Source: an uncultured Gammaproteobacteria bacterium (lineage in GTDB: Bacteria; Pseudomonadota; Gammaproteobacteria; Pseudomonadales; Azotimanducaceae). Taken from it: DNA of 64,000 nucleotides. Under the pieces are notes generated by a model. It was not told where the DNA came from and ran no database searches. It worked only from the letters and a program-made list of their open reading frames with translations. Every line of letters starts with the position of its first letter. Position 1 is the first letter of the stretch. Positions 3,994-20,836 of the stretch are shown here, one piece after another. Location: the NCBI GenBank assembly GCA_913044135.1, contig CAJWOK010000004.1, forward strand, positions 1,135 to 65,134. Reading direction: 5' to 3'. Made by a program: the position numbers and the translations under genes.

Positions 3994-4001
3994 TTAACGG
4001 C

Positions 4002-5177
4002 TCAGATAACAACCAGTTCAGCGCGCAGACTGCCGGCGCTCTTCAATGCTTCAAGGATGGCAATCAGAGATGATGGGCTCGCGCCAACCTGATTGACGGC
4101 ATCAACAATGTCGCGCAGGTCAACACCTGGCTGAAACAGGAACATGGGTCGGGCTTCTTCTTCCACCTGAATTTCGGCGTTCTGTACGCCGACTGCTTCG
4201 CCTGCTACACCGGCTTCGCCTGCGGCAATTTCCACATTTGGCTGGACGACTTCGTTGGTAGCGGAAATGGTGACCGAAATAGCGCCCTGGGTTACCGCGG
4301 CGGCGGTGACGCGTACGCCACGGCTAATCACCACGGTGCCAGTACGTGAGTTCACGACTACCTTCGCTTTCGGTTCGCCGGGAATCACATCCAGATTTTC
4401 AATCATGCTTACAAACGAGACTCTCGACGCTGGATTCTCCGGTGCGAGCACCGCGACAGATCGTCCATCCAGAGCAGTAGCTGTACCTAAACCGAAATTA
4501 TCATTGATCGCTGACGTGATTGCCGTAACTGTGGTGAAGTCGGACTGGGTCGTGTTAAACACTAAATATTCAGAGTCATGAAAAGGGGTTTCCACTTCTC
4601 TCTCAACAATAGCGCCATTGGGTACACGACCCGCTGTCGGAACGCCAATGCTAACCTGGTTGCCCGCGGCCTGAGCATCCACCGCTGTCACGGTTAACGC
4701 ACCTTGCGCAAGCGCATAAATTTCTCCATCCGCACCGCGCAATTCGGTCAGCACCAAATTGCCACCGCGCAAACTAGATGCAAGACCAATTGTGGCAACA
4801 TTCACGTCAATACGTTGCCCAGGCTTGGTGAAAGGCGGCAATGTTGCTGTCACCAGGACGGAAGCCACGTTATCCAATTTGGTTTTGTCGTAAGCAAGAC
4901 TGGCAACACCGCGAGCATATAGGTCGTAATTGGAAATGGGGCCGTCGACTTCTACACCTAAGCGTTCCAGGGTGGCTTTGAGGCTTTGCGCGGTGAACGA
5001 AATTTTATCTCTGTCACCCGTGCCCTGAAGGCCAACCACTAAGCCGTAGCCTATGAGCTGGTTAGGTCGCGCGCCCGCCAATGTGGTGAGGTCTTTCACG
5101 CGATCCGCAAATGCTTCGCTGGTTATGATGGTCAGCACTACGAACAACGATAAATATAAAAATTTAATTTTCTTCAT
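4002..5177 (-). CDS. flgI: Flagellar P-ring protein FlgI
   Basis: RVKDL...RPNQLIGYGLVVGLQGTGD, SSLRGG.L, VVVNSRTGTVV, C-terminal AILEALKSAGSLRAEL. Start at 5177 (MKKIK) preferred over 5192. Confidence 0.97.
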   Translation of the reverse strand: MKKIKFLYLSLFVVLTIITSEAFADRVKDLTTLAGARPNQLIGYGLVVGLQGTGDRDKISFTAQSLKATLERLGVEVDGPISNYDLYARGVASLAYDKTKLDNVASVLVTATLPPFTKPGQRIDVNVATIGLASSLRGGNLVLTELRGADGEIYALAQGALTVTAVDAQAAGNQVSIGVPTAGRVPNGAIVEREVETPFHDSEYLVFNTTQSDFTTVTAITSAINDNFGLGTATALDGRSVAVLAPENPASRVSFVSMIENLDVIPGEPKAKVVVNSRTGTVVISRGVRVTAAAVTQGAISVTISATNEVVQPNVEIAAGEAGVAGEAVGVQNAEIQVEEEARPMFLFQPGVDLRDIVDAVNQVGASPSSLIAILEALKSAGSLRAELVVI

Positions 5178-5179
5178 GA

Positions 5180-5893
5180 CTAAAACGGCCATACCTTATT
5201 AAAGAATTGCGTGCCCCAGTTCACTTTAGAGAAGTCTGCTAGCTCGCCTGTGCCTTGATATGCAATCTGCGCGCCAGCAATCCGCGAGGACAACACTGTG
5301 TTGTCCGGCTGAATGTCTTTAACGGCGATCACACCCACTAAACTCACCGTCTCGCTGCCTTCGCTTAACGACAGGCGCTTCTGTCCTTTGATGACTAAGT
5401 TGTCATTAGGCAGTACTTGCGTAACCATTACAGAAATTGCCCCAGACAACGTGGCAGCTTGCCGTGCCGTGCCGGAGCCTTTGGATTCGACGGTCAGGTC
5501 TTCGAAGTCAGTGCCTTTTAAAACATCACGACCCTGGCGTTTCATCCAACTTCCGCTGGTCGCATTGAGGGGCGCTGCGATAAGCGACTGCAGATTTTTT
5601 AAAGGCATATTTCGGCCTTCCTTCGAGGCTTCGAGGCCGTTGCTGCGACGCGCTTGAGTCGACTCATCCAGGATGACTGTGACGAGATCACCGACGACAA
5701 ATTGACGCCTGTTGCCAAAAAGCCGACTCCCGGTACTGTCAGCGAAAATAGAACCCGTCGGGATTACCGCACCCATTGGTTGCTGCGGTACGACTGGATA
5801 GTAAGGGTCTACAACCGCCTGCTGCGGCGGCAACGTTGTCGCGCAGCCCACGCTTAGCCAAGACAAAACCATAAGAATGCTTATTTTTTTCAT
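5180..5893 (-). CDS. flgH: Flagellar L-ring lipoprotein FlgH
   Basis: Lipobox LSVGC, GSIF, VGDLVTVILDE, VTQVLPNDNLVIKGQK, DIQPDNTVLSSRIA. Confidence 0.97.
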   Translation of the reverse strand: MKKISILMVLSWLSVGCATTLPPQQAVVDPYYPVVPQQPMGAVIPTGSIFADSTGSRLFGNRRQFVVGDLVTVILDESTQARRSNGLEASKEGRNMPLKNLQSLIAAPLNATSGSWMKRQGRDVLKGTDFEDLTVESKGSGTARQAATLSGAISVMVTQVLPNDNLVIKGQKRLSLSEGSETVSLVGVIAVKDIQPDNTVLSSRIAGAQIAYQGTGELADFSKVNWGTQFFNKVWPF

Positions 5894-5935
5894 TTTTTAC
5901 CTGCAAATACCAAGTGAATAGCTTTGTTAACCGTT

Positions 5936-6721
5936 TTATAGGTTGTTGTTCAGGAATCGAAGCATCGAGTCGACAGCTGAGATGGCTTTCGAGTTAACTT
6001 CGTAAGCTCGCTGGGTCTCAATCATGGTCACCAGTTCTTCTACAACATTGACGTTTGACGCCTCCAACATGCCTTGTACCAAGTCGCCGGCTCCCTGTTC
6101 TCCAGGGACCAAAAGAATTGGCGCACCGCTTGAGGCGGTTTCCTTAAATTGGTTTTGGCCCATCGCTTCTAGACCAGCAGGGTTCAAGAACCGTGCCACC
6201 TGTAGCTGGCCAATTTCCTGATTACCACCACCGTTAGCAAGCTCAACGCTGACGATGCCATCGGTGCCGACCGTGACAGACGAGGCTTCCTGTGGAATCA
6301 CGATTTGCGGCTGTAACAGCAGACCAGCTGGATTAACGAGTTCACCTTCTGCGGACAATTTAAAACTGCCGTCTCGTGTATAGGACAACGTTCCATCGGC
6401 CTGCACGATTTGAAAGTAACCCGGACCTTGAATCGCTACGTCTAAAGCATTCTCCGTAGAAATCATGTTGCCCTGGGTCTGAATTTTTTCTGAAGCCACA
6501 ACGCGCGTACCGGTACCCAACATAAATCCGGTAGGTGCTTCTGAATCGGCACCGGTTTGCCCGCCAGATTGACGGATGTTGAGATAAAGCAAATCTTCGA
6601 ACACCGCGCGATCACGTTTAAATCCGACCGTGTTTACATTGGCCAGGTTGTTCGCAATGACCGTCATACGCGTTTGCTGCGCGTTGAGGCCGGTTTTCGC
6701 TACATAAAGTGAAGAGTCCAT
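5936..6721 (-). CDS. flgG: Flagellar distal rod protein FlgG
   Basis: SLYVAKTGLNAQQ...NNLANVNTVGFKRDRAVFEDLLY; LEASNVNVVEELVTMIETQRAYEVNSK. Confidence 0.98.
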   Translation of the reverse strand: MDSSLYVAKTGLNAQQTRMTVIANNLANVNTVGFKRDRAVFEDLLYLNIRQSGGQTGADSEAPTGFMLGTGTRVVASEKIQTQGNMISTENALDVAIQGPGYFQIVQADGTLSYTRDGSFKLSAEGELVNPAGLLLQPQIVIPQEASSVTVGTDGIVSVELANGGGNQEIGQLQVARFLNPAGLEAMGQNQFKETASSGAPILLVPGEQGAGDLVQGMLEASNVNVVEELVTMIETQRAYEVNSKAISAVDSMLRFLNNNL

Positions 6722-6737
6722 AATATTGCCTCCAAAA

Positions 6738-7484
6738 TTACGCCATTCGCATCAGCGTTGAGTTGGACTCGCCCAACTCGTCAAAGTCTTTAATCAGTTT
6801 GATTTTCATTTCGAAACTACGCATGTGATCCATGATTTCGACCATGGCCTCCATCGCGCTGACCGTGCTGCCTTCTACGATTCCAGTGGATATCGATACC
6901 GGCTCCGGACCCGGTTCGAAGTCTCCGGGTGGGAAACCTACCGCTCGGAACAACCCGTTTTCTTTCTTGGTTAACTCCACATTGCTCGCATCACGAAGCA
7001 TAATCCGGCCGATCTCTACCTGTTCCGCAACTTCCTGTTGCGGATCCAAAGCGTAGACAACACCTTCATCAGATATACTAATCGTTTGGTTAAGAGGTAC
7101 CTGAATGGGGTCCTCATTGTCAGCTGCTATGGTGTAGCCGGAGCCATTGACAAGAAACCCGTTACCATCGACGCGCAAATCGCCTCGACGTGTAAAGCCT
7201 ATTTCTTCGCCGTCATGGAGCACGCCCATTACCGCGTCATCGTTCATATAAAGATCGAGCGGGTTGCCAGTGAAAATCTTCGGCCCTGGTCGCAGTGAAA
7301 CTTTCGTTTCACCCAGCTGACTATCATCGGCCACTTCAGCCCCATCCTGTATGCTAGTTAGGGCATGTTCGTAAGAACGTTTAAAACCCAACGTCGAGAC
7401 GTTTGAGAGCTCGTGAAAAAGATGCGCTTCTCGTGCTCTTTCAATAGAAACATCAGCGGTAAGGGTAACAATGCTTTTATCCAT
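6738..7484 (-). CDS. flgF: Flagellar proximal rod protein FlgF (divergent)
   Basis: LSNVSTLGFK, TGNPLDL, FTRRGDLRVDGNG, VEGSTVSAMEAMVEIMDHMRSFEM; lies between flgE and flgG. Confidence 0.9.
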   Translation of the reverse strand: MDKSIVTLTADVSIERAREAHLFHELSNVSTLGFKRSYEHALTSIQDGAEVADDSQLGETKVSLRPGPKIFTGNPLDLYMNDDAVMGVLHDGEEIGFTRRGDLRVDGNGFLVNGSGYTIAADNEDPIQVPLNQTISISDEGVVYALDPQQEVAEQVEIGRIMLRDASNVELTKKENGLFRAVGFPPGDFEPGPEPVSISTGIVEGSTVSAMEAMVEIMDHMRSFEMKIKLIKDFDELGESNSTLMRMA

Positions 7485-7505
7485 CAGATTTCATCCAAAC
7501 TAGAA

Positions 7506-10319
7506 TTAAATATTCAATATGGTTGACGTTAATCCAGACGAAGTTTCTAGCGCTTTCGCATTCGCCTGGAAATTACGCTGCGCAGTAATCAACCCAACCA
7601 ATTCTGCGGTTAGATCAACGTTAGAACCTTCTAAAGCTCCGGATCGCAGCGAACCGAAATTCGACGAACCAGGTTCACCAATACTTGGCAGACCAGACTT
7701 AGCGGTTGCGACAAATGTGCTGTCGCCTAGTTGGTTCAAACCTTCCGTGCTGGGAAAGTTCGCAAGTAGGACTTTGCCGAGCGCATTTTGCGAGCCATTT
7801 GAGTAACTGGCCGTTACCAGACCATCATCTGAAATATCGAGACCTACCAGATCACCTTCGGCGACACCATTTTGAAATTGATTGCGCACAGAGAAAGGCT
7901 GCGCAAATTGTGTCGTGCCAGCATAGTTAACGGATAGATCAAGGGCTTGGCCTCCGGCCAGAAACACCGTCTCCATGGCTACACCTTCAGCCGGGGAAAG
8001 CAACTTACCGTTTTTATCGAAAGTAAGCTCACCCTTATCCAAAAACACCGGCGACCAAGCGGGCGCTTGCTCGAATCCGGCAGGATCAATGGTTTCCTCG
8101 CCAAACTGATCGATGTATTCAGGTATCTCTACGCCGTCAACCACACTGGTGGCTTGGGTAGGCTTGATCCAGGTTGTGGTTTCACCGCGGCCCGCCATAG
8201 CATTCGACATGCCCCAGGTGGAACTGCCGCGTACGCTTATAAACGCCTGATCACCAACATTACCTGTGGTAAAACTGAGGCTGTTGGTTTCCTGGTCGTA
8301 AGCAACCTGAACACCGGACACCTGGGCGCCATCGACTGATTCAAGTTGATTAATCTGACGCTCCAACTCACTAGTGAAGGTGTCCATAGTGTAATTTTCA
8401 CTGACCGGCAGGCTAATTGTTCCTTTAACGTCGTTTACATTCACCTCAAAGGTATTGTTGTCTGCGCCAACAGAGAAAACGCCCTCAACGTTGGTACCTA
8501 TTGGCCCTCCGCGGGTAACCGCCGGCAATGAATCAAGGCCTCGAACAGCGGCGTCGGAAGTCACAACATTCACTGCAGGATCTGCCTCAGTTACGGCAAA
8601 CCCTAGGAACGTCGCGGCGGCTGCATTGAAATTAGGGGCAGCCTCGGTACCGGTGTCAAAATTAAGTTCAATTTCTGAGCTATCGCCGGTGGTTCCGGAC
8701 GCGACCGAAAAAGTATTCGTCGCATTGTTATAGGTCACTGCGATACCGTAGCGTTGCTCATCCGCAGGACGACGCAACTCACCGTTGGCAATAACTACCG
8801 CCGGGTCGCCTGACGTATCCACCGAATAAAAACCATCCTCATCAACCGCGTTAGGTACGGCATCCAACTGGAACAAATCGTTGGTTTGACCGTTGCTGCC
8901 TTGTAATGACAGATCGGCAAGCGCACCTTCTACCTGATAAGTAAAGGATCGGGCGACCGCATCGTAACCAACCGTTACTGCTCCAGCGCCTAATTCAGCG
9001 TCGATCTGAGCCTGAATAGCAGCGACAATTTGGTCTTCGGTGGCTTCAGTCTGCGAAAGCAAATCGGGGAAGTCATCTGTTAAATCAATGGCGATTGTTG
9101 TTTCTGCATCACCATCGTTGTAAACCGCTTCGAAAGTACGGTTAGCCTCTGTCGATAAGTCAAAATAACGCTTGTCACCAAACTCGTCGTTCAGCTGACC
9201 TTCAATGAACTCGGCAATTTCGTTTCCTGTAAAGGCCTTATCCTGCTGCGCCAACGCCAGAAGATTCAGCATTACTGGATTGCCTGAGCCGTCTACATCT
9301 ATTGATGCGAATTCGGTTAAAGCCGCTTCATCAAAAGTGGGATTTTCGTCAGCTAAATCATTGAAGAAGTTAAATCCTTGCCCAAACCCGAGCTGGTTCG
9401 GCACAACCTGACCTTCCAGGGTGGCCGGTACGGAATCCCTAACGTCCGTCAAACCGTCTAAGGTGAATTTCTGGCTCTTTGCATTCACCAGCTCATTTTG
9501 TATCTCTGAAAATGGCTTCAACTCACCATATTGATTGATGTAAAGCGCTTCACCATCATTGTTTTCTGCGGGCTGTAGATCTGGAACAACCCGCTGACCA
9601 TCGATGAACATATAAGTCTGCCATTTGCTCGCAGGCTCATTCGCAGTCGGATTGTTGGTCGAGCCGCCGACAGTGTCCGCCGAGGCATTAGCAGTCTTTA
9701 CGTAATAAACGTTGGCCAAATAGGATTTGCCCGCCTGATCGTATACCGTGATTGCTGACGACTTATTATAGGTTGTTGCGTCGTTTATATTGAATGGCGC
9801 ATCAATCACTGCCGCATCAGCCGGTAAATTGAGCTCAAACCCAATGTCGGTTGTTTGATCAGCCTCACCGGTTGTTCGGGCAGGAATAGATAAGCCGATG
9901 AGTTCGTCGCCAACGGGTTTACCCACTGCATCCACCTGCGAAGCCATGAGTAGACGGCCTCCCGAGTCTACCACGCGTCCTTGCTGGTCCAGGGTAAACG
10001 CGCCACTGCGGGAATAGACGTCGGTATTGCCATCGGCAGATTTCATCGGAAAAAACCCGTCTCCGGAAATCGCCAGATCAAGCGTGTTAGAAGAAAATTC
10101 AATGCTACCTTGGCTGAACTGTTGGCGAATGCCGTTTAAGGCAACACCTTGTCCCACTACGGAGCTTTGCTTTTGAAGCGGGGACGTCGCGAAAATGTCG
10201 CCAAAGGAAGCTTTCGACTTTTTAAAGCCAGTCGTGCCGACATTAGCAATATTGTTACTAGATACAGACAACTCCGTATTCGCCGCTCGCAAGCCGGTTA
10301 ATGAAGTGAAAAATGACAT
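7506..10319 (-). CDS. flgE: Flagellar hook protein FlgE, greatly enlarged (937 aa)
   Basis: SLTGLRAA...SNNIANVGTTGFKKSKASFGD, LDLAISGDGFF, LEGSNVDLTAELVGLITAQRNFQANAK. Confidence 0.97.
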   Translation of the reverse strand: MSFFTSLTGLRAANTELSVSSNNIANVGTTGFKKSKASFGDIFATSPLQKQSSVVGQGVALNGIRQQFSQGSIEFSSNTLDLAISGDGFFPMKSADGNTDVYSRSGAFTLDQQGRVVDSGGRLLMASQVDAVGKPVGDELIGLSIPARTTGEADQTTDIGFELNLPADAAVIDAPFNINDATTYNKSSAITVYDQAGKSYLANVYYVKTANASADTVGGSTNNPTANEPASKWQTYMFIDGQRVVPDLQPAENNDGEALYINQYGELKPFSEIQNELVNAKSQKFTLDGLTDVRDSVPATLEGQVVPNQLGFGQGFNFFNDLADENPTFDEAALTEFASIDVDGSGNPVMLNLLALAQQDKAFTGNEIAEFIEGQLNDEFGDKRYFDLSTEANRTFEAVYNDGDAETTIAIDLTDDFPDLLSQTEATEDQIVAAIQAQIDAELGAGAVTVGYDAVARSFTYQVEGALADLSLQGSNGQTNDLFQLDAVPNAVDEDGFYSVDTSGDPAVVIANGELRRPADEQRYGIAVTYNNATNTFSVASGTTGDSSEIELNFDTGTEAAPNFNAAAATFLGFAVTEADPAVNVVTSDAAVRGLDSLPAVTRGGPIGTNVEGVFSVGADNNTFEVNVNDVKGTISLPVSENYTMDTFTSELERQINQLESVDGAQVSGVQVAYDQETNSLSFTTGNVGDQAFISVRGSSTWGMSNAMAGRGETTTWIKPTQATSVVDGVEIPEYIDQFGEETIDPAGFEQAPAWSPVFLDKGELTFDKNGKLLSPAEGVAMETVFLAGGQALDLSVNYAGTTQFAQPFSVRNQFQNGVAEGDLVGLDISDDGLVTASYSNGSQNALGKVLLANFPSTEGLNQLGDSTFVATAKSGLPSIGEPGSSNFGSLRSGALEGSNVDLTAELVGLITAQRNFQANAKALETSSGLTSTILNI

Positions 10320-10329
10320 GCGTTAATCC

Positions 10330-11010
10330 TCAATCGGAGATTTTTGAAACAAGGCTAAGCGGAACGACTTCGCCATCAGTCGTTTCCAAGAGCGCTTCAC
10401 TGCTTAATTCGTCCCATGAAACGCCACGAATACGCGCTTCAGAAAAAACCGGCACGCCTTGGGCTCTACCGCCATTAAAGGCGTCAGCGCGGAAGGTATA
10501 GTTGCCAGGTTGCGTCGGCGCGCCGGTTGCGTCGCCACCATTCCAAACAAATGGCACTGAACCCGCCTCCTGATAGCCGAGCGCGATTTTATTTACGATC
10601 TCACCTGTATCAGCGTTGATTACGCTAAGCTCCACGCTCTCGGCACCAACGGGTAAGTCGATGTAACCTTCTATCGGCTGTCCACCAGCTTGTGCAAAAC
10701 TTTGCTGCGGGAGGAATACGCCCTTACCGATTAATGATGCACCCCGCATAATGGTTTCGCCGCGTTGATCATTTACGAAACGATCAAGTGAAGAGGCCAT
10801 CGACGTGGTCGCTTCCAATGACGAGAACTGGGCTAACTGCGCAATGAAATCCTCATTTTTAACGGGATCCAGCGGGTTCTGGTTTTGCAGCTGTGTGGTA
10901 AACAACTTTAGAAAAGCATGCTTGTCTAAAGGGTCCTCAGCCTGGCCCGCTTGAGCGGGATTAGCGATATCAGCGAACATTTTGACATTAGATACGTTAG
11001 CGTAATCCAT
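10330..11010 (-). CDS. flgD: Flagellar hook cap/assembly protein FlgD
   Basis: FLKLFTTQLQNQNPLDPVKNEDFIAQLAQFSSLE motif. Confidence 0.97.
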   Translation of the reverse strand: MDYANVSNVKMFADIANPAQAGQAEDPLDKHAFLKLFTTQLQNQNPLDPVKNEDFIAQLAQFSSLEATTSMASSLDRFVNDQRGETIMRGASLIGKGVFLPQQSFAQAGGQPIEGYIDLPVGAESVELSVINADTGEIVNKIALGYQEAGSVPFVWNGGDATGAPTQPGNYTFRADAFNGGRAQGVPVFSEARIRGVSWDELSSEALLETTDGEVVPLSLVSKISD

Positions 11011-11015
11011 AGTTA

Positions 11016-11441
11016 CTACTTCCTTAGAATCTCGAGGGTGCGCATAGACAGCTGTTTCGCTGTGTTCATTGCTTCGATGCTGCTCTCAAAAGAGCGGCTC
11101 GCTTGCGTGATTTCTACCATTTCTAGCATTGAGTCGACGTTGGATGGATAGACAAAACCGTTATCATCAGCGAGAGGATTTTCAGGCTGATAAGTAGCCG
11201 GCACGATCTTTTCGTCTTCATATTCAGAACCGATGCGCACGCCTCCTTCAGTTTCGCGGCGACGGTCATCAACCGTGTTTTGTAAGATGGTTTGAAACTC
11301 CACGCGCTTGGCCTTGTAGGCTTGCTCCTGGCTACCGGCCAGAACGTCTGCGTTAGCGATATTTTGCGCGGAAAGAGACAAGCGACGGGATTGTGCATCC
11401 ATCGCTCCGCCCGCAATTCCAATTATACTTTCTAGACTCAC
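11016..11441 (-). CDS. flgC: Flagellar proximal rod protein FlgC
   Basis: AMDAQSRRL..SAQNIANAD, YQPENPLADDNGFVYPSNVD..EMVE...ASRSFE; GTG start preceded by AAGGAG. Confidence 0.96.
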   Translation of the reverse strand: MSLESIIGIAGGAMDAQSRRLSLSAQNIANADVLAGSQEQAYKAKRVEFQTILQNTVDDRRRETEGGVRIGSEYEDEKIVPATYQPENPLADDNGFVYPSNVDSMLEMVEITQASRSFESSIEAMNTAKQLSMRTLEILRK

Positions 11442-11458
11442 AGGGTTATCTCCTTAAA

Positions 11459-14125
11459 TTAAGATCTAAGCAGCTCTAGGGCGAGCTGGTTTAATTGATT
11501 GGCCTGACTCAGCATTGAAGTGCCCGCTTGCTGCAACACTTGCGCTTTAGCTAAACGCGCGGATTCCAAGGCGAAGTCGGCGTCAGCAATCCGAGATCTA
11601 GCCGATTCGGTTTTTTCGGCAACGTTCATCAGGTTGAGGATTGAGTATTCCAACCGATTTTCTATAGCACCCAAATCGGCACGCGTTTGTGCAACGTGGT
11701 TTAGCGCCGCATCAGCGGTAGCTATAGCTGCAGTGGCACCCGCAATAGTCGAAATGTTTAAGGATGAAACAGTGTTCAAACTAGAACTTTCATCCTGGAA
11801 ATAACTTACTTTGCGAGCACCGAGGACGGAATTATTGGCGTCGAGATCCAGGGCAACGCCTGCGGCCGATTGGAGCGTAAAGCCTCCTAACGAAGCCGCT
11901 CCGGTTAAGCGAAGCTGTTCACCTCGAGCACCGGTGATCGTATTGTCAGCATCAAGAGCTACCTCGACACCGGCTGCGGTTGCAAAAGTAAAATCGCCTA
12001 ACCCGGCAGAACCTACCAACCGAAGTTGCTCGACGTCGGCGCCACCGACAGCGCTAGCGGTAAGCAGCCCAGTTAGGTCGGTTGCGTCAATCGCAGCCTG
12101 AAACGCTGCAGCGGTTGGTTCTGCTGGCGTGATCGTGTACTCCTCACCGCCGGCATTAATGACATATGAGGCATCGGTTAAATCCGCGAGAGCATCGGTA
12201 GTGGTCGAAACGCCGACGATGTCAGCGCCACTCACCGCGCCATCAGTGGAATTGTCCGCGGTGATTGCGATGGCGAGACCATCGGCGTCCTGTAAAACAA
12301 TATCGCCAAGAGTATCAACACCCGTCAGCTGCAATTTACCGCCGACATCAGCGGCAGTGATGCTGCCATTCAGATCAGTCGCATCGATAGCCGCTTGAAA
12401 GCCCTCTACGGTTGCTGCTCCAGGAGCGATAGCCGTTGCAACACCATCAACCATGATGTTGTAAGCGCCTGCGTTTAGATTCGCTAAATCTTCAGCCGTC
12501 TCCTTAACGGCAGCGGTGTCTGTAGCGGCACTCGTGCCGACTGCACTCGCCGTTACTAATCCCTTGAGGGCGGTCGCATCGATTGCTGTTTGAAAGGACT
12601 CGACTGTGGCCGCCGCCGGCGTTATCGCGTAGTCCACGCCATTAGACTGGATAATATAAGAACCGGCGGTCAGCGAAGATAATGTATCGTCGGTAGTAGC
12701 AACGGTCGCAATGTCCGTGCTCTTGACCTCGCCATCCGTTGAATCGGCGGCGCTCATGAAAATTGCCAACCCATTGGCATCCTGCAAAGTGAAGTCACCC
12801 AGCGTCTCAGAACCAGTCAGCTGTAGCTGCCCACCGAAGTCAGCAACCGTGATGTCTCCGGCGAGATTCGTGGCATCAATCGCGGCCTGGAAACCTGCAA
12901 CGGTAGCGGCAGCAGGGGTGATCTCAGTCGCCACCCCGTTGACCATAATGTTGTAGGTCGCATCTGTTAGGGTGGTAAACGCCGCATCAGTAATCTTGAT
13001 CGCAGCAGTATTATCACCGTCGTTTGCTTGCGTAATATCAAAGGTTTCGACGGAGTCTGCTCGGATTGATCCCGAGATAATGACGGCGTCATTGCCACCG
13101 CTGGACATCATCCGCACTGCAGAACCGATTTCTGTCGCGCCGAGGAAATCCAGTTTCTGAACCGTTAAATCCGATCCGGTCGATAAATTTTCAATCGTGA
13201 TGTCTTCTCCATCTCCATTGAAAAGCAGAATTTCATCGTTACTTGTTGATGACGCGGTAACGCCGCTTGCGCCCGACACAGCATTGATTGCGCGGACCGC
13301 ATCTGCTGTGGATGTGGAGGAAATACTAAAGTTGCCGGTAGAGGTGCCATTAATGTTCAGGCTATAAGTACCGGCGGTTCCATCCAGAGAAGCCAACTTT
13401 GCGTATGTGTGTGCAGCAGCTGTCACATCAGTTTGATTCGAAAATTGATTAATACGCGCGGCTGTATCCCTTGCACTGTCGGAGGCCAGCGCGTTGATTG
13501 TCACCGTTCCCAAACGTCCGCTCACAGTAAAATCTTCGGCCGCCGTCAGTTCGTTTGCCGGAGCAGTGGTTGCCGCGAGCTGTGCCGAAGGACCGTTGCC
13601 ATAAACGGTGTTTACCCCGGTATCGTCTATCGCGATGGATCGTACGCTCAACACGATCTCTTCCGACTGATACATGCCCAGCTTAATGGCTTTGTTAGTA
13701 AACGAGCCGTCGAGCACTTTTTCGCCGTTATAGTTAGACGTTTGCGAAATGCGGTTAATTTCTGAAACCAGCTGATTTACTTCCTCTTGGATATAAGAGC
13801 GGTCTTTTGCAGAGTAAGTTGCATTTGCGGCCTGAATCGCCAATTCGCGAATGCGTTGCAGCATGTCAGAAACCTGATCAAGAGATCCTTCAATGGCTTG
13901 AGTCAAAGCCATCCCGTCGCCAGCGTTTCTTACAGCCATATTTAGACCGGCTACTTCCGCAGACATGCGCTTTGATACCGCCATACCAGCGGCATCATCG
14001 GCTGAAGAGTTAAGTTTAGAACCTGACGCCAAGCGCTCCATAGCTAGGCCCACCTCGTCACTGGACTTCGCTAGCGCACGCTGAGCGCTCAATGAGGCGA
14101 TGTTTGTGTTAATTACGATAGACAT
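11459..14125 (-). CDS. fliC: Flagellin, 888 aa, with a large repeat-rich central region
   Basis: N-terminal INTNIASLSAQRAL...ERLASGSKLNSSADDAAG...LQRIRELAIQAAN; C-terminal RADLGAIENRL...SARSRIADADFALESARLAKAQVLQQAG. Confidence 0.97.
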   Translation of the reverse strand: MSIVINTNIASLSAQRALAKSSDEVGLAMERLASGSKLNSSADDAAGMAVSKRMSAEVAGLNMAVRNAGDGMALTQAIEGSLDQVSDMLQRIRELAIQAANATYSAKDRSYIQEEVNQLVSEINRISQTSNYNGEKVLDGSFTNKAIKLGMYQSEEIVLSVRSIAIDDTGVNTVYGNGPSAQLAATTAPANELTAAEDFTVSGRLGTVTINALASDSARDTAARINQFSNQTDVTAAAHTYAKLASLDGTAGTYSLNINGTSTGNFSISSTSTADAVRAINAVSGASGVTASSTSNDEILLFNGDGEDITIENLSTGSDLTVQKLDFLGATEIGSAVRMMSSGGNDAVIISGSIRADSVETFDITQANDGDNTAAIKITDAAFTTLTDATYNIMVNGVATEITPAAATVAGFQAAIDATNLAGDITVADFGGQLQLTGSETLGDFTLQDANGLAIFMSAADSTDGEVKSTDIATVATTDDTLSSLTAGSYIIQSNGVDYAITPAAATVESFQTAIDATALKGLVTASAVGTSAATDTAAVKETAEDLANLNAGAYNIMVDGVATAIAPGAATVEGFQAAIDATDLNGSITAADVGGKLQLTGVDTLGDIVLQDADGLAIAITADNSTDGAVSGADIVGVSTTTDALADLTDASYVINAGGEEYTITPAEPTAAAFQAAIDATDLTGLLTASAVGGADVEQLRLVGSAGLGDFTFATAAGVEVALDADNTITGARGEQLRLTGAASLGGFTLQSAAGVALDLDANNSVLGARKVSYFQDESSSLNTVSSLNISTIAGATAAIATADAALNHVAQTRADLGAIENRLEYSILNLMNVAEKTESARSRIADADFALESARLAKAQVLQQAGTSMLSQANQLNQLALELLRS

Positions 14126-14157
14126 AGGATTCCTCTGCTTGTTTCAGCAATATTCTT

Positions 14158-14538
14158 TTATTCACCTCGGAGGGAACGACGGATGCCACCCACTCGATTC
14201 TCTAAAAATTGCAATGTCGCCGAATAACGCGTTGCTTCTTTACCGAATTGGGCTTGCTCATAGTTAACCTCTACAGAATTGTCGTTTTGCATTGGATTAA
14301 TCGGCACGCGGTAAACCAAATTTGCTTTCCGCTTGGCAGTGGCATCCATGTGGAGTGGACTCGTTCGCTGCATATCGGATGACGTTTGCTCTGCCATGAT
14401 TTTCTTAAAATCCATGTCCTGGGCTTTGTAGCCTTTGACATCTGAATTCGCGATATTTGACGAGATCATCGACAGTCGTTTGCTGCGCAAATCCAAAGCC
14501 TGTTCTGTTGGACCGAAAATATTGTTGTAGATTTGCAT
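14158..14538 (-). CDS. flgB: Flagellar proximal rod protein FlgB
   Basis: ALDLRSKRLSMISSNIANSDVKGYKAQDMDF, NDNSVEVNYEQAQF...RYSATLQFL. Confidence 0.96.
   Translation of the reverse strand: MQIYNNIFGPTEQALDLRSKRLSMISSNIANSDVKGYKAQDMDFKKIMAEQTSSDMQRTSPLHMDATAKRKANLVYRVPINPMQNDNSVEVNYEQAQFGKEATRYSATLQFLENRVGGIRRSLRGE
14298..14324 (-). promoter_or_regulatory. Candidate sigma28 (FliA) promoter inside flgB, oriented toward flagellin
   Basis: Minus strand reads CAAA-N15-GCCGATTA; the consensus is TAAA-N15-GCCGATAA. About 170 bp upstream of the fliC ATG. Confidence 0.55.
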
Positions 14539-14572: not shown

Positions 14573-14599
14573 TAAAGTTTTTGATCTACTTGCCGATCT
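14573..14599 (+). promoter_or_regulatory. Candidate sigma28 promoter in the flgB-flgA spacer (antisense to flgB leader, sense toward flgA)
   Basis: TAAAGTTT start, TAAA-N15-GCCGATCT; shares CCTAAAGTT with the flgM promoter. Confidence 0.6.
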
Positions 14600-14632: not shown

Positions 14633-14648
14633 AGCAAAGAGCGTGCCA
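14633..14648 (-). promoter_or_regulatory. sigma54 -24/-12 promoter of the flgB operon
   Basis: Minus strand TGGCAC-GCTCT-TTGCT matches TGGCAC-N5-TTGC exactly; about 95 bp upstream of flgB. Confidence 0.85.
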
Positions 14649-14743
14649 GCTATTAAAGCGTCAGCTAAACGTTTGTTGCTTTTCAATTTTTTCATAAAAA
14701 TCATCAAGTTATATTTTGTTACTTTTTGGGCTGATGGATTTAC

Positions 14744-14780
14744 CGGCAAATCAACACCGATCCGGCAACACTGCTTGCCG
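14744..14780. promoter_or_regulatory. Cluster of three CGGCAA motifs, a candidate FlrC/FleR-type enhancer
   Basis: CGGCAA at 14744 and 14763, TTGCCG at 14775, about 100-130 bp upstream of the flgB sigma54 promoter. CGGCAA repeats are the reported Vibrio cholerae FlrC binding element. Confidence 0.4.
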
Positions 14781-14790
14781 CCTTGATATC

Positions 14791-14806
14791 CGTCAAAATA
14801 TTGACG
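14791..14806. promoter_or_regulatory. FleQ/FlrA-type enhancer box
   Basis: Near-palindrome cGTCAAAATATTGACg fits the Pseudomonas FleQ box (GTCA-A/T-rich-TGAC) and lies between two divergent sigma54 promoters. Confidence 0.65.
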
Positions 14807-15085
14807 ATCGCGAAAGATTTTCGACAAAGACTGCTGATTTCTGACATAGCTTATCCCTCTTTATTACTAGGCATTAGAACGATAAAGCCGATGTAAACCG
14901 CGGCCATGCCTGCTTCGAGTGCCCCCCGAATATCGACACGACACACAGATCCATCCATGCCACAGTGCCGTCCAGGCAAACACTGCAGATTTCGCGCCAA
15001 AAGACATCCCAAGCGATTGGGCGCCGATAAATCAGGTGTATAACAGAGAGGTCTTTAAGCCCGCTGGCCGGTATATGTCGAGAAT

Positions 15086-15101: not shown

Positions 15102-15243
15102 AAGTTACTTGAAAGAAATTAGGAAGAGGCGAAAGGCAGCGAAGCAACAGAACGCCTTGTAAAAAGCACCCTAAGAGCGCTACGTTTTCGGCGGCGGCTT
15201 TAATCCCGCTCGGCCCCACTGAGTGCATCGAACCGAGACTCGT

Positions 15244-16215
15244 ATGATAGAAATTACAAAAGACGCAGAGCCCGTTGTTAAAGGTGCCATCGCAAGGCTG
15301 ATTGAAATTGCTCGCGCCTGTATCTGGGCGTGGGTCTGCGTCTGTGCAACGGTACTGGCGCTGAGCTCAGCTTTCGCCAACTCGACGACACCACCCGGAT
15401 CATCCGAAAAAGCAGCGCTTGAGGGACAGATGACCGCCTGGCTAGAACAGCAAGGACTACCAAAAGCGTCGAAGCCTAATCTCAATGACCGCAGATTAAT
15501 CGTCCCTAACTGTTCGAAACCATTTAAGTTTTCTCGGTCCGGGCCGACTTCTCGTTTGATTGAAGTCACCTGCACCGCTCCTATATGGCAAAGGTGGCTG
15601 AAACTTGCTTCGGTACAAACACGATCCACTGCGGCCAGCACTGCTGCAACCTGGGTAACCTTTGCGGACTTAGCCGCCGGTGCGCAGCTAACTGCAGAAA
15701 ATGTGCGGCGGGTACAGCGACCGACTCGACAAATTCCTCGTAACGCACTTAGAGGCATTGATACGGTCGATGGATACTTTGTCATGAAGCCCGTAACGGC
15801 TGGAGATGTGTTGCTGACTGAAGACATCGGCAAGATGCAGAGGGTAGTAATCGTAACCAGGACTCTGCCCACAGGTGCTCCTCTAACAAGAGATTCGGTA
15901 ATCCTTGAGTCACGCCTTTTAGATGTACCGAAGGACGCGCTCAAAACGCTCGAAGGTTTGAATTTATTTACTACTAATCGCACCGTCGAAGGTGGAAGCG
16001 TATTAACCAAACGATTGTTGACGAGAGCAAAACTGATAAGACGCGGCGACTCTGTATTGGTTTCCGCGGACGGCTCCGGCTACGCGATCCAATCACAAGC
16101 AACAGCGCTGGAAGATGGTTATTTGGGCGAACGCATCAAAGTGCGTAGCAACGACAGCGGTAAGGATTTATTCGTAAAGATTACTGGTGAATCCAAAGCG
16201 GTGACCATAAAATGA
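15244..16215 (+). CDS. flgA: Flagellar P-ring chaperone FlgA with two SAF-like repeats
   Basis: Signal-peptide-like segment; C-terminal LIRRGDSVLVSA...IQSQATALEDGYLGERIKVRSNDSGK; divergent from flgB and upstream of flgM. Start uncertain (15223 GTG or 15244 ATG). Confidence 0.9.
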   Translation: MIEITKDAEPVVKGAIARLIEIARACIWAWVCVCATVLALSSAFANSTTPPGSSEKAALEGQMTAWLEQQGLPKASKPNLNDRRLIVPNCSKPFKFSRSGPTSRLIEVTCTAPIWQRWLKLASVQTRSTAASTAATWVTFADLAAGAQLTAENVRRVQRPTRQIPRNALRGIDTVDGYFVMKPVTAGDVLLTEDIGKMQRVVIVTRTLPTGAPLTRDSVILESRLLDVPKDALKTLEGLNLFTTNRTVEGGSVLTKRLLTRAKLIRRGDSVLVSADGSGYAIQSQATALEDGYLGERIKVRSNDSGKDLFVKITGESKAVTIK

Positions 16216-16260: not shown

Positions 16261-16313
16261 AACGTTCGAATAAACTATTTGTGTCTAAGAGTTAGAGACA
16301 TTTGAGATTAATC

Positions 16314-16610
16314 ATGGAAATCACAAAACAAACAGTTAATAACGCACAGCCCAAAGTTGACGCAGCCAGTGCCGCCAAAAAGACCGCAGAGGTGGAACCC
16401 CGAGATTCTGCGCGAGTAGAAAATAATAAAACTGAAGCGCATAAGAGTGTCGAGGTTGAATTAAGCGAAGCCGTTAAGTCTGCTGAGTCAAATGCAATTA
16501 TGGACGCCGCTCGAGTTCAAGAAATCCGTGCTGCTGTTGAAGCAGGTCGCTTCCCGCTCGACGCCAAGAAAATAGCTGAGAATTTTGCTGAACTTGAAAA
16601 GCTACTTTAG
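16314..16610 (+). CDS. flgM: Anti-sigma28 factor FlgM
   Basis: VELS...MDAARVQEIRAAVEAGRFPLDAKKIAENF; follows flgA. ATG at 16314 preferred. Confidence 0.9.
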   Translation: MEITKQTVNNAQPKVDAASAAKKTAEVEPRDSARVENNKTEAHKSVEVELSEAVKSAESNAIMDAARVQEIRAAVEAGRFPLDAKKIAENFAELEKLL

Positions 16611-16630: not shown

Positions 16631-17005
16631 TTGATTAAAGAACACTTATCGCGCCTTGACCAACAAGTCGAGGCGCTTTCGCTCGTGCTCGAAAAAGAAT
16701 TTACGGCACTCTCAAACCGCGACTTTGATACTTTAGAAGCCCTGCAAACGGAGAAAGTCGCGCTGCTCAGTGACATTGAATCGCTGATGTCAGCTGCCTT
16801 CCAGGAAGCAAATTCTGATCAAGCAGGCGCTCTGGATACGATAAGCAGCCGCCTCGAGGCGTGCAAGGAAGCTCATATACGCAACGACCTGGTCTTAAAA
16901 CGCCAGGTCGAAGTGACGCAAAATATTTTAACGACTTTGGTAGGCCAATCGTCGTCTTCCACCAACGTCTATACCAAGCTAGGCCGAATCAAACCGAACC
17001 GTTAA
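16631..17005 (+). CDS. flgN: Flagellar export chaperone FlgN
   Basis: LEKEFTALSNRDFDTLEALQTEK...CKEAHIRNDLVL...YTKLG; follows flgM. Confidence 0.85.
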   Translation: MIKEHLSRLDQQVEALSLVLEKEFTALSNRDFDTLEALQTEKVALLSDIESLMSAAFQEANSDQAGALDTISSRLEACKEAHIRNDLVLKRQVEVTQNILTTLVGQSSSSTNVYTKLGRIKPNR

Positions 17006-17320
17006 TTAGCTTGATGAATCCGGCTGCCGACCCTGCAGCCAGTAAACCCACGATAAGACTGTCGCCACTGACACATAAACTTCTTCCGGTATCTCTTCTT
17101 CCAGCTGAAGATAAGATAGCGTTTCTGCCAATACTGGGTCTTCCGCGATAGGAATATTGTGCTCTTTTGCAATGCGAATGATTTCCAGCGCGAGCTCGCC
17201 TTCTCCCTTCGCTTTGAGAATGGGCGCTCGGACCTTGTCATAAAGCAACGCGACCGCTTTTTTGCCAGCCTGACCCGCTGCTGGGTCAGTAGATTCTGCC
17301 GGACTACTCTGCTTATACAT
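17006..17320 (-). CDS. Stand-alone FlhB C-terminal-like (EscU/YscU/HrcU family, FlhX-type) protein
   Basis: KKAVALLYD...APILKAKGEG.LA.EI...AKEHNIPIAEDP.LAE.L..L.LEEEIPEEVY..VA.VL. The ATG at 17320 overlaps the upstream stop (ATGTATAA). Confidence 0.85.
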   Translation of the reverse strand: MYKQSSPAESTDPAAGQAGKKAVALLYDKVRAPILKAKGEGELALEIIRIAKEHNIPIAEDPVLAETLSYLQLEEEIPEEVYVSVATVLSWVYWLQGRQPDSSS

Positions 17321-18473
17321 CGATGGAAATTCCTTCGCTGGCTTGGCTGACAGATGCCTCGTTGCTCTGTTTCGCTCGCGCGAATGCGACAAAAGAGCCA
17401 AGCGTCACGCCGGCGTTGGCCAACATTTTGCGCAAATGAGGTTCTCCCTCTCTCGCGACCTGACAAACACCCGCATCGGGAACCCAAAGCCGTACCGCTA
17501 GCCCAGAATCCTGATAGCGCACATTCGCTGAAAGCTCTACCGATTGACTCTCTGCAGACTGATTTTCTGCGGATAGGGTTTCGACCGCCTTCTTTTTCGG
17601 CATATGCCCGTCTACGAGCTTCCAGGGAATAGTTAGGTCCACTTGCCAAGTTGTTTGGCCGGGACTATCCGGTTGATCTTCGGCACTGGCCTTTTCCTTA
17701 GTCAGTGTGATTAACACCGGATTTTGATCTGCAAAGATTAACGTCCAATGCAGCGACACGGAGCGTTGTGTCGCATGCGCTAGCGTTTCAAGTTGCAGTC
17801 CCGTCAGTTCATCTATTGCACCCCCCAGGGTACTGACATCCGCGCCTCGGGCGAGCAGGACACGACGGATCTCCATCAGCGCGGCCTTGATCCCCAGCTG
17901 GGACTGCGGGATACCCGCCTTTATTTGTTGTTCTGTGAACAAACCGCTTTGCAGAATGGCACGCTGGATGCTCGCGCCGTCTAAACGCAGACTAGTTAGA
18001 AGGTGATTATTGAGTTGCGCCAGCGCTGGCTCATTGCTCGCCTTACCAAGCAGACTCTCTAGAAAGCCACCAGTAAAAAGACGGGAGAGATGACCCGTGT
18101 TGGCTGCGCTGCTTTGCAGACGTTGCAGTTTAGCGAGGGGGCCGCTGACGTCCGGTCTGTCCCGCAAAGCGATTGAGCCATCCTTGCCGCCCTCTTTAAT
18201 TTGACGTAGCACCGCTTGGCCGCCAACCATCAACATTTGCAGCGACATTCGTTGTCCGTCTTGGCCCATTCCCTGGGGTAGCAAAACCCCTCTATTGCCG
18301 AAATTAAGGACGTTGCCATCTGCTTTTTGAGTAACGACACCGTGGATGATTTGACCAGGCTGCAGCCCGAGCAATCGGGCTTGCTCTGGCGCTAAGCGTA
18401 GAGAGGGGCCAGCCCCTTCAACATAGACAATGTTTGGTCGGGACTGGGTGCCAATTGACTCGGTGCTATACAC
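17313..18473 (-). CDS. FliK-like (hook-length control family) protein
   Basis: IQRAILQSGLFTE...IKAAL pattern; C-terminal WQVDL...L.V.LW...LRKMLANAGVTL FliK-C-like segment; coupled to the FlhB-C-like gene, a known pairing. Confidence 0.6.
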   Translation of the reverse strand: MYSTESIGTQSRPNIVYVEGAGPSLRLAPEQARLLGLQPGQIIHGVVTQKADGNVLNFGNRGVLLPQGMGQDGQRMSLQMLMVGGQAVLRQIKEGGKDGSIALRDRPDVSGPLAKLQRLQSSAANTGHLSRLFTGGFLESLLGKASNEPALAQLNNHLLTSLRLDGASIQRAILQSGLFTEQQIKAGIPQSQLGIKAALMEIRRVLLARGADVSTLGGAIDELTGLQLETLAHATQRSVSLHWTLIFADQNPVLITLTKEKASAEDQPDSPGQTTWQVDLTIPWKLVDGHMPKKKAVETLSAENQSAESQSVELSANVRYQDSGLAVRLWVPDAGVCQVAREGEPHLRKMLANAGVTLGSFVAFARAKQSNEASVSQASEGISIDV

Positions 18474-18479
18474 TGCGTC

Positions 18480-18989
18480 TCAAGGATACTGAACCCAACC
18501 AGCGCGCGGGTCTTTGTTCTTTCCGCGCATCTGCTCAAGGCCACCCGTCCTAAAAATGATTCGCTTAAAGTCGGCGACCGTAGGAATTCGTAACTCTTTC
18601 TTTGCAAACAACCAATTTGGATTGGAGCGCTTGAAGGCATGCGGATTAGCCGAAACAAAGGCTCGACGAAGCATACTTTCGTTAATCGGTGAATCGGCCA
18701 TGGTGCGCTTAATGATCAGGTCGAGATAATCCCCTTCCTGAACCATATATTTGCCGGGCGCGCCGTCTTTGTTTTCATCTGACCCGTCGTCGGACATGCT
18801 CATTACTGCTGTCTCCAAATCGGCGACCAGACGCCTCAAGGCACGGTCCAGCTCAGTATCATCTGGATATTGCGGCTCAGCAACAGCGACCTCTGCGGGT
18901 TCCACGAGTGCCGGTTCCGGCATAGGCGCAGGGCCTACGCATCCGCTAAGAAAGAAAATCGTTGCTGCAACAATCAAAGGCAATTTCAT
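18480..18989 (-). CDS. Lipoprotein with FimV-type LysM-like domain
   Basis: Lipobox FLSGC; YMVQEGDYLDLII...AFVSANPHAFKRSNPNWLFAKKELRIP resembles the FimV N-terminal LysM region. Confidence 0.7.
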   Translation of the reverse strand: MKLPLIVAATIFFLSGCVGPAPMPEPALVEPAEVAVAEPQYPDDTELDRALRRLVADLETAVMSMSDDGSDENKDGAPGKYMVQEGDYLDLIIKRTMADSPINESMLRRAFVSANPHAFKRSNPNWLFAKKELRIPTVADFKRIIFRTGGLEQMRGKNKDPRAGWVQYP

Positions 18990-18992
18990 GAC

Positions 18993-20186
18993 TTATCCCT
19001 TCAACCTAAATGAATCGATGTCCGCCAGTGGAATAGCAATAGTTGGTTTAAGCACCGCTACACTATCACCGGCATATATGTTTAAAAAAGCCGTGCTCGC
19101 ATTTACTTGCACTACCTCGGCTAGGGCGACCGAGTTCATGCCAGCCTCTAAGCCAGAAGCCGTCAAGGATGCTGAGCTCGGTAGCAACACAAACTTCTGC
19201 CCAAGCTGGATACCCACATCTTCGCCGCCACTTACGGTTGGTAGGGCGGAAGCTAAATTAACTTCGAGCGAATTATCGACCACACAGTTAGCGATAGCCG
19301 CCAGTTCAGGCAGTTTCTCGTATAGCCACTGCGTCAGAGCGTCCTTAAGCGCGCCCTCCAATCGAACCGCCACGCCGCGGAGCTTAGGTCGGCTTACATG
19401 CAAACGCAGCTTATCCTCATAAAGACGCTGCCCGTTATCACTTGCTGTCACGGCTATGGTAAGTGCATAACCCGCCAACAATGACTCGGGCGGCCGGGCA
19501 CGCTCCATGATTCGAGTCACGCGCTGAGCAACCGAAACAGACAACTCTACTGTTAAGTCGCTTGCAGGCGTAGCCTTACTAACCATATAGCGATGATAAC
19601 GGGTGTTCGTCTTAACCTGCGTTTGCAGCGTGGTTGCAGCACCTAACACACCGCTCGCATCCTGCAACATGGCTTGTGTTACAAAACCTTGCACCTGGTG
19701 CCCCAATGCAAGCGCCGCGGTATCTTGCGCTACAACAGGCTGAGTCTTAATCAAGACTCTTTTCTTGCGAATGGCCGAGCCAACGCATTCGCCAGCAAAT
19801 TTCGAACCCAAAACCGGCTCAACCAAAGCGATTTCTGGCTGTCCGAAGCGATTGTCTGGGTGAGAAATGCGAATGCGCTCCAAGTCTATATGACTGAATA
19901 CGGAAACCGATTCGTCGTAACGACCCTCGCCGTCAATCCAGGCATTTGCGGTAACTCGGGATTCATGGTCAAACGCGTAGTCCATCAAGGACCGCTTGAT
20001 GGCCTCTAATTGTTCCTGTGCCGTAACAAATTCCTCGGTTACTAAGGCAGGTGCATTTTCATTAGCAAAGTCTTGGTCGAACTCTTGAGCAAAACACAGT
20101 GCACTGGCCATTGCCAACACCGCTAAACCGACGCCGCGGAATATCATTGTTATTGTGATCACGAGCATGATATTCGACCTTCTCAA
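18993..20186 (-). CDS. Exported hypothetical protein (possible FlgT-related by position)
   Basis: Signal peptide ending ALCFA; 397 aa; directly after flgP. C-terminal GGEDVGIQLGQKF...V.QV is loosely like the FlgT C-terminal domain. No firm family recognition. Confidence 0.45.
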   Translation of the reverse strand: MRRSNIMLVITITMIFRGVGLAVLAMASALCFAQEFDQDFANENAPALVTEEFVTAQEQLEAIKRSLMDYAFDHESRVTANAWIDGEGRYDESVSVFSHIDLERIRISHPDNRFGQPEIALVEPVLGSKFAGECVGSAIRKKRVLIKTQPVVAQDTAALALGHQVQGFVTQAMLQDASGVLGAATTLQTQVKTNTRYHRYMVSKATPASDLTVELSVSVAQRVTRIMERARPPESLLAGYALTIAVTASDNGQRLYEDKLRLHVSRPKLRGVAVRLEGALKDALTQWLYEKLPELAAIANCVVDNSLEVNLASALPTVSGGEDVGIQLGQKFVLLPSSASLTASGLEAGMNSVALAEVVQVNASTAFLNIYAGDSVAVLKPTIAIPLADIDSFRLKG

Positions 20187-20199
20187 CCTAACTTACGGG

Positions 20200-20730
20200 C
20201 TACAGACGCGTCACGACTCGGACACGACGACCGCGAGTTTCTGTCGTTTTAAACTCGCCGATTAGCTCATCGATCACAGATTGCGATAGGGATAGTTTCG
20301 TTTCATAGCTTTCTATACCGATTGGCGTAATGCTGACCAAGCGTGCCCCGTAGATCAAACCTTGCACTCGGCTACGTAGCTTGTCACCAACCAAAGAAAG
20401 ATCATTAACCTGGCTGTTGCTCTCTAAATACTGACCGTATACCTGCTCTGCGAGGCTCCGATAAGCATCTATTTTTGACGCGCGGATGGCCATTAATCTG
20501 CGCTGGGCAGGGCTGTCTCCCTGTTGGGCATCAATTACCGCATAGCCCATGGCCACAATGCCATCTACTTCTGGAGAGTTCATGTTAGCAGCGAGCATCG
20601 CACGCGAATCGCCTGCTGGCGATGCACAGCCGGCTACAAGCAACACCATAGCCGCAGCAAAAATGCCAAAACTACGACCCTTCCGGGCACCCAATTTATC
20701 TATCGCGGTGTGTGTTTGCATAAGCTGCAT
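20200..20730 (-). CDS. flgP: FlgP/LPP20-family lipoprotein
   Basis: Lipobox LVAGC; A.GYA...AQRRLMAIRASKIDAYRSLAEQVYG...V.GLI.GA, the FlgP signature. ATG at 20730 has an AAAGGA RBS. Confidence 0.85.
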   Translation of the reverse strand: MQLMQTHTAIDKLGARKGRSFGIFAAAMVLLVAGCASPAGDSRAMLAANMNSPEVDGIVAMGYAVIDAQQGDSPAQRRLMAIRASKIDAYRSLAEQVYGQYLESNSQVNDLSLVGDKLRSRVQGLIYGARLVSITPIGIESYETKLSLSQSVIDELIGEFKTTETRGRRVRVVTRL

Positions 20731-20809
20731 TATTTTGTCCTTTGTTAAGTTGTCGATCAGCACGCACAACGCGCGATCTGCTGGCGTTTGCCATAACGGG
20801 TTGCCAAGT

Positions 20810-20836
20810 AAATCGGCCATTCCGGCGAAACCTTGA
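20810..20836 (-). promoter_or_regulatory. Candidate sigma28 promoter of the flgP operon
   Basis: Minus strand TCAAG-N14-GCCGATTT matches the Pseudomonas-type FliA consensus, about 80 bp upstream of the flgP ATG. Confidence 0.65.

Follow-up and report, generated by a model that had tools for sequence, protein, structure and literature searches.

A flagellin gene between flgB and flgC is conserved in the marine KI89A clade and is probably expressed early with the rod operon

In the 64,000-nucleotide (nt) stretch of DNA analysed here (part of contig CAJWOK010000004.1 of an uncultured gammaproteobacterium, hereafter the window), a complete flagellin gene separates flgB from flgC, the two rod genes that head the flagellar flg operon. 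Almost universally, flgB and flgC are neighbours, and flagellin is the classic example of a late gene in flagellar assembly; the KI89A clade, a common clade of marine bacterioplankton, stably retains a flagellin between the two, behind a sigma-54 promoter motif. We conclude that the embedded flagellin is probably an early filament protein of the sigma-54 class, produced along with the basal body, and, judging from the sequences, put the probability that it is co-transcribed from the sigma-54 promoter of flgB at roughly three in four.

Results

A flagellin gene separates the first two rod genes

A first-pass annotation of the window had described flgB, a gap of 32 bp, a flagellin gene, a gap of 17 bp and then flgC to flgL on one strand, with no hairpin terminator in either gap. 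This description is borne out: the strand is the minus strand, and neither spacer holds a site resembling an intrinsic terminator (Table 1). Both flgB and flgC are assigned by equivalog models and share the strand with flgD-flgL, which come next, and the direct flgB-flgC junction is absent, the two genes lying 2.7 kb apart. The protein encoded between them matches the flagellin domains at both ends, Flagellin_N over positions 1-139 of 139 (128.6 bits, cut-off 26.6) and Flagellin_C over positions 2-86 of 86 (79.2 bits, cut-off 23). Flagellin models score up to 289 bits on it, against 66 bits for the FlgL model TIGR02550, and a separate flgL follows flgK. The repeats of its central region are visible at the protein level only, as Tandem Repeats Finder (TRF) reported no tandem repeats in the DNA of the gene.

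The hook protein FlgE and the junction protein FlgK of the window are about twice their usual size, and FlgE measures 930-958 amino acids (aa) in relatives. An insert module common to the flagellin and these two proteins was considered and rejected, the centre of the flagellin resembling the FlgE insert only weakly (23% identity, E 9e-7) and showing no similarity to FlgK.

The gene order is old and confined to one clade

The genome of the window is a metagenome-assembled genome (MAG) of 140 contigs and 3.0 Mb, 98.6% complete, and with an assembly this fragmented, misassembly needed testing. In several of 60 related genomes searched with FlgC, 2-3 kb lie between the FlgB-like match and that of FlgC, and in the regions that we fetched, every related contig spanning the locus carries flgB-flagellin-flgC-flgD-flgE with a divergent flgA-flgM-flgN. 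Using the FlgB alignment of the clade (A1) as a query against the GTDB species genomes, we then obtained 28 loci. They derive from many separate studies, and their titles refer to the "K189A/KI89A clade", Gammaproteobacteria or Pseudomonadales as MAGs or as single-cell genomes. The order flgB-flagellin-flgC is complete in 16 of them; in seven the contig ends after flgB-flagellin, in five it ends at or just past flgB, and flgB adjacent to flgC was seen in none of the 28. The spacer upstream of the flagellin measures 24-58 bp and the downstream one 17-50 bp, or 24-50 bp in the 16 complete loci; all of them contain a Shine-Dalgarno sequence. Because the identity of FlgC to that of the window is as low as 48% among the loci keeping the order, the arrangement must be old. 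A recent horizontal insertion was rejected for the same reason, and as no GC anomaly is present.

About 12 of the 28 contigs break at or inside the flagellin, which is the expected effect of a repeat-bearing, paralogous gene on short-read assembly. Since the gene is a frequent contig break in KI89A MAGs, annotators should expect split flg operons in this clade. Two further irregularities concern binning. In the MAGs CPC316 and ARS1012, two distinct flgB-flagellin loci occur per genome, each locus on a contig of its own (L054/L056 and L058/L061), and their contamination estimates of 6-7% suggest two co-binned strains. In the assembly of the window, the 4.2-kb contig C132 (locus L003) carries a second, partial flgL, which together with its neighbours is 77-78% identical to the relative G014; the flgL on the window's own contig is only 38% identical to that of G014, and C132 is probably from another KI89A population binned into the MAG.

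To gauge rarity, a fusion of FlgB and FlgC was used as a query against 200 gammaproteobacterial genomes sampled evenly over families, 95 of which gave matches. Among the matches listed, flgB and flgC are contiguous in all genomes outside the clade, representing about 75 other families, and a separation of 2.7 kb is found only in the genome of the window. Direct adjacency was likewise found in genomes of other families examined individually (G055, G042, G038 and G043) and in one listed relative, G015. The first-pass annotation was thus right to take the adjacency as the norm, and the synteny survey that it had called for places flgB-flagellin-flgC in the KI89A loci and, among the matches listed, in no other family. 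The scope of these comparisons is 200 gammaproteobacterial genomes, about 60 relatives and 28 clade loci, all within the Gammaproteobacteria.

A probable single origin of the embedded flagellins

The relatives have more flagellin genes than the embedded one. All 16 relatives tested have between two and nine Flagellin_N matches. In addition to flgL and the embedded gene, two to five flagellin genes form an array about 10 kb beyond flgL, with spacers of several hundred base pairs. In a maximum-likelihood tree computed on the conserved termini, the 17 embedded flagellins form one group (support 100/98), and the array flagellins fall into three or four other groups. The embedded orthologs vary from 585 to 929 aa in length, and their termini are strongly conserved. 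As far as the sequences tell, the pattern fits a single old insertion followed by vertical inheritance and specialisation.

Promoter motifs and gene boundaries

The sigma-54 promoter that the first-pass annotation had assumed for flgB has a matching motif in the window, and a perfect TGGCAC-N5-TTGCT is found 103-155 nt upstream of flgB in all 17 loci compared for promoters and folding. In the same loci, conserved sigma-54 or sigma-28 motifs are lacking from the coding sequence of flgB, from the flgB-flagellin gap and from the last 400 nt before flgC, and within the flagellin gene no promoter of either type is conserved that could serve flgC; the spacers themselves are too short to hold one. 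With a threshold of two mismatches or fewer, a sigma-28 motif was seen upstream of the embedded flagellin in two of the 17 loci, compared with about two expected, whereas the array flagellins of the relatives have such a motif in 15 of 29 cases (about three expected by chance), of the type TAAAG-N15-(G/C)CCGATAA and 60-250 nt upstream of the gene. As judged from these motifs, the embedded flagellin is a gene with no FliA promoter of its own, while the other flagellins of the relatives have one.

Near the boundaries of the gene, the only hairpin is a weak stem of 6 bp at 11471-11488, within the last flagellin codons, which has no U-tract and is not conserved, and the folding z-scores of the flagellin-flgC boundary are near 0 in 17 relatives, with no conserved structure. 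A terminator or attenuator hairpin at this boundary was rejected accordingly.

With the motif present in 17 of 17 loci, the gaps short and nothing conserved inside flgB, early production of the flagellin from the sigma-54 promoter of flgB, as the first-pass annotation had proposed, is the most likely arrangement. Two of its further suggestions fare less well. Late flagellin transcripts reading into the rod genes would require a late promoter, and none is conserved upstream of the flagellin. A rewired hierarchy is an overstatement: the relatives keep their two to five array flagellins, about half of them with sigma-28-type motifs; genes for RpoN, five sigma-54 activators, FliA and FlgM are present; and a design combining an early flagellin with sigma-28-dependent ones is established.

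Discussion

A model for an early flagellin

We suggest that a single insertion in the ancestor of the marine KI89A clade placed a specialised paralog of flagellin between flgB and flgC, where it has been retained since. With no promoter of its own, the gene would share a sigma-54 transcript with the rod, hook and junction genes, and RNA polymerase would have to cross it to reach flgC-flgL. Being part of that transcript, the flagellin would be early and FliA independent, made while both basal body and hook are under construction. It would presumably be held in the cytoplasm until the export gate turns to late substrates, and would then be the first flagellin exported, forming the hook-proximal filament; separate sigma-28-type flagellins, like those of the relatives, would build the remainder. 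The full model, with its hook-proximal placement, carries less assurance than co-transcription, and we would give it slightly better than even odds.

A bolder idea, and in our judgement an unlikely one, is that the embedding itself is a regulatory device, the geometry of the operon replacing part of the promoter-based flagellar hierarchy. If this were true, a starter flagellin would be in fixed coupling to every basal body, a delay and polarity between the first rod gene and those behind it would be inherent, and the polycistronic mRNA would possibly be processed so as to give very different protein yields; an abundant marine lineage would then have a previously undescribed ordering of flagellar assembly.

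Several points weigh against an early, sigma-54-class flagellin. The promoters are assigned from matches to consensus motifs and the conservation of those matches; a weak sigma-28-like motif does occur inside flgB (Table 1); and the embedded flagellins have Shine-Dalgarno sequences of no particular strength. Furthermore, no other flagellin gene was found in the 98.6%-complete assembly of the window, so that this organism could build its filament mainly or entirely from the embedded flagellin. The rival explanations, in descending weight, are such a main or sole filament protein, an internal sigma-28 promoter, a role outside the filament and misassembly.

According to the first, the embedded flagellin is the major, and here perhaps the only, filament protein, with its high output set post-transcriptionally, for instance because the flagellin part of the polycistronic mRNA is selectively stabilised or because translation is controlled. 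In that case, far more of the protein would be needed than the neighbouring rod genes yield from one transcript. The strong conservation of the termini agrees with such a role, as does the lack of a second flagellin in the assembly. However, several other flagellin genes are present in all 16 relatives examined, the boundaries of the embedded gene have no conserved RNA structure, and the missing array is most likely an assembly gap. Contig C4, at its start, stops 207 bp past flgL, and contig C24, at its end, stops within a fleQ-like gene for a sigma-54 activator; in G014, flgL and the fleQ-like gene flank a region of roughly 20 kb holding the flagellin array. A gap is likely because the two contigs end at precisely these flanks and because the assembly has no contig below about 2.8 kb. 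We consider this explanation unlikely, and the conclusion that the embedded gene is the sole flagellin is unsupported, given the arrays of the relatives and the breaks at both flanks.

Slightly less likely again is that the motif inside flgB is a sigma-28 promoter, which would bring late expression of the flagellin and read-through into flgC-flgL. The spacing of the motif is right, and it is placed about 170 nt upstream of the flagellin ATG. Yet sites with two mismatches number 35 in the 64-kb window, with roughly 0.1 expected per flgB-sized stretch, and the 17 loci show no enrichment. The -10 part of the motif coincides with the conserved Val-Pro-Ile codons of FlgB, and the motif decays to GCCGGTAA or ACCGATCA in close relatives and is absent in the second subclade. 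A hidden sigma-28 promoter as the main explanation was therefore rejected, being at chance frequency and not conserved.

An improbable third explanation makes the gene product a flagellin-like protein outside the filament, a component of the junction zone, a secreted protein or a surface decoration, expressed with the hook-basal body. The placement among early structural genes, a lineage distinct from the array flagellins and the unusual size of the hook protein and FlgK in the clade would all suit it. On the other hand, both flagellin domains are matched over their full length and flagellin models score far above FlgL models, the protein nests among ordinary flagellins in the tree, and a regular flgL is present. 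Finally, although the MAG is fragmented and flagellin genes often break assemblies, as in the 12 related loci ending at or inside the gene, the chance that the order is an assembly artefact is negligible, because it is shared by independent MAGs and single-cell genomes from many studies, with 16 complete loci and contigs of 1-2 Mb among them, and because the embedded flagellins are a group of their own in the tree.

Comparison with known systems

Apart from the flagellin, the operon of the window has the genes and the order of the canonical gammaproteobacterial flgBCDEFGHIJ(KL), and it shares with polar flagellates the divergent flgA-flgM-flgN and a sigma-54 promoter. What the canonical operon lacks is the flagellin of 1.8-2.8 kb that KI89A has between flgB and flgC, and none of the roughly 75 other families among the matches listed has one there. 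In Vibrio, the flagellin genes come after flgL, with no interruption of flgB-flgC. The FlaA of Vibrio cholerae belongs to class III and is sigma-54/FlrC dependent, and the FlaB of Campylobacter and Helicobacter is a sigma-54-dependent minor flagellin. Like these proteins, the embedded flagellin would belong to the regulatory class of the rod and hook genes and stand beside sigma-28-dependent flagellins; unlike it, Vibrio flaA and the flaB of Campylobacter and Helicobacter are separate transcription units outside flgBC.

The closest parallel is found in Shewanella. The FlaA of S. putrefaciens and S. oneidensis is RpoN/FlrA dependent and FliA independent; in S. putrefaciens, its synthesis precedes completion of the hook, the accumulated protein is the first to be exported and makes up the hook-proximal segment, and the FliA-dependent FlaB forms the rest of the filament (PMC6299084). 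As proposed for KI89A, one flagellin is grouped with the early sigma-54 genes and the others with sigma-28 promoters, and a pool of early flagellin is predicted before the hook is complete (PMC6299084). The two systems differ in their genetic layout: Shewanella flaA has its own promoter, adjoins flaB and lies outside the rod operon, whereas the KI89A flagellin separates flgB from flgC and has no detectable promoter of its own, and its placement in the filament is a proposal only.

In its origin from a marine gammaproteobacterium, its enlarged size, its repeated central region and the accompanying enlargement of FlgE and FlgK, the flagellin of the window also resembles the giant flagellins of Oceanospirillales (PMC6248924). 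At 888 aa, however, it is below the threshold of >1000 aa for giant flagellins (Thomson et al. 2018, PMC6248924), and neither flgB and flgC nor the position of the gene in an operon is mentioned in that paper. The phrase "between flgB and flgC" was not found in the literature searched, and among the papers retrieved for KI89A and flagell*, none is about flagellar gene order according to its title and abstract. The gene order is thus conserved, clade specific and, apparently, undescribed.

The principle of an early flagellin is already known, and what is new is its implementation, in which the flagellin is the second gene of the rod operon and has no separate promoter. The idea proposed for Shewanella, Vibrio and Campylobacter would here be fixed by the structure of the operon instead of a separate promoter, and the KI89A case offers a clean comparative test of why a different flagellin starts filaments. 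It also raises the question of how one transcript can serve proteins required in very different amounts.

Other features of the window

The coordinates of the flagellar features are collected in Table 1. Further along the window come flhA, flhF, a gene for a MinD/ParA-type ATPase at the position of flhG and the gene for a FliA-like sigma factor.

Table 1. Features of the flagellar region, with positions counted from the first nucleotide of the window.
Feature	Position	Strand	Remarks
flgL	start about 267, extends beyond the window	-	
flgD to flgK, remaining operon	293-11010	-	
flgK, 1085 aa	293-3550	-	
flgJ, 148 aa	3547-3993	-	
flgI	4002-5192	-	
flgH	5180-5893	-	
flgG	5936-6721	-	
flgF	6738-7484	-	
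flgE, 937 aa	7506-10319	-	
flgD	10330-11010	-	
flgC, rod protein, 141 aa	11016-11441	-	GTG start; TIGR01395, 116 bits (cut-off 102)
Flagellin-flgC spacer, 17 bp	11442-11458	-	Shine-Dalgarno AAGGAG; no terminator
Embedded flagellin, 888 aa	11459-14125	-	conserved D0/D1 termini, repeat-containing central region
flgB-flagellin spacer, 32 bp	14126-14157	-	Shine-Dalgarno AGAGGA; no terminator
flgB, proximal rod protein, 126 aa	14158-14538	-	TIGR01396, 91.7 bits (cut-off 59)
Sigma-28-like candidate inside flgB	14298-14324	-	CAAA-N15-GCCGATTA, 2 mismatches; not conserved, within chance expectation
Sigma-28-like site	14573-14599	+	TAAAGTTT-N11-GCCGATCT; directed away from flgB, towards flgA-flgM-flgN
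Sigma-54 promoter motif of the flgB operon	14633-14648	-	TGGCAC-N5-TTGCT, 0 mismatches; TGGCACgctctTTGCT; 110 nt upstream of the flgB ATG
flgA	15223-16215	+	divergent from the flgB operon
flgM	16302-16610	+	divergent from the flgB operon
flgN	16631-17005	+	divergent from the flgB operon
flhF	23267-24487		named by position; no Pfam match
FliA-like sigma factor, 232 aa	25385-26083	+	downstream of flhA, flhF and flhG

The FlgJ of the window aligns with the FlgJ models in their N-terminal, rod-binding part alone and has no muramidase domain; that of G014 is of similar length, 146 aa. Downstream of flgN, the minus strand at 17313-20820 carries a FliK-like gene, whose Flg_hook domain scores below the Pfam cut-off, and three co-oriented open reading frames (ORFs), 169, 397 and 206 aa long, for which Pfam gave no match. 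Farther on, at 28187-54731, the flagellar cluster adjoins the neighbourhood of the replication origin, with Pfam-confirmed glmS, glmU, mnmE, yidC, dnaA and gyrB; an atp operon, mnmG and parAB near the origin are assigned from ORF sizes only.

The intergenic region between flgB and flgA measures 680 bp and contains an ORF of 35 codons, seen by eye at 14739-14846 on the minus strand, with a good Shine-Dalgarno sequence, AGAGGG, and about 90 nt upstream of the sigma-54 promoter. The strong sigma-28-like site on the plus strand is 35 nt from the start codon of flgB and stands face to face with the sigma-54 promoter of that gene. All five loci of the closest subclade have an equivalent site (TAAAGTT...GCCGAT) at a distance of 22 nt from flgB; at the same threshold, only one of the 11 other loci has such a site.

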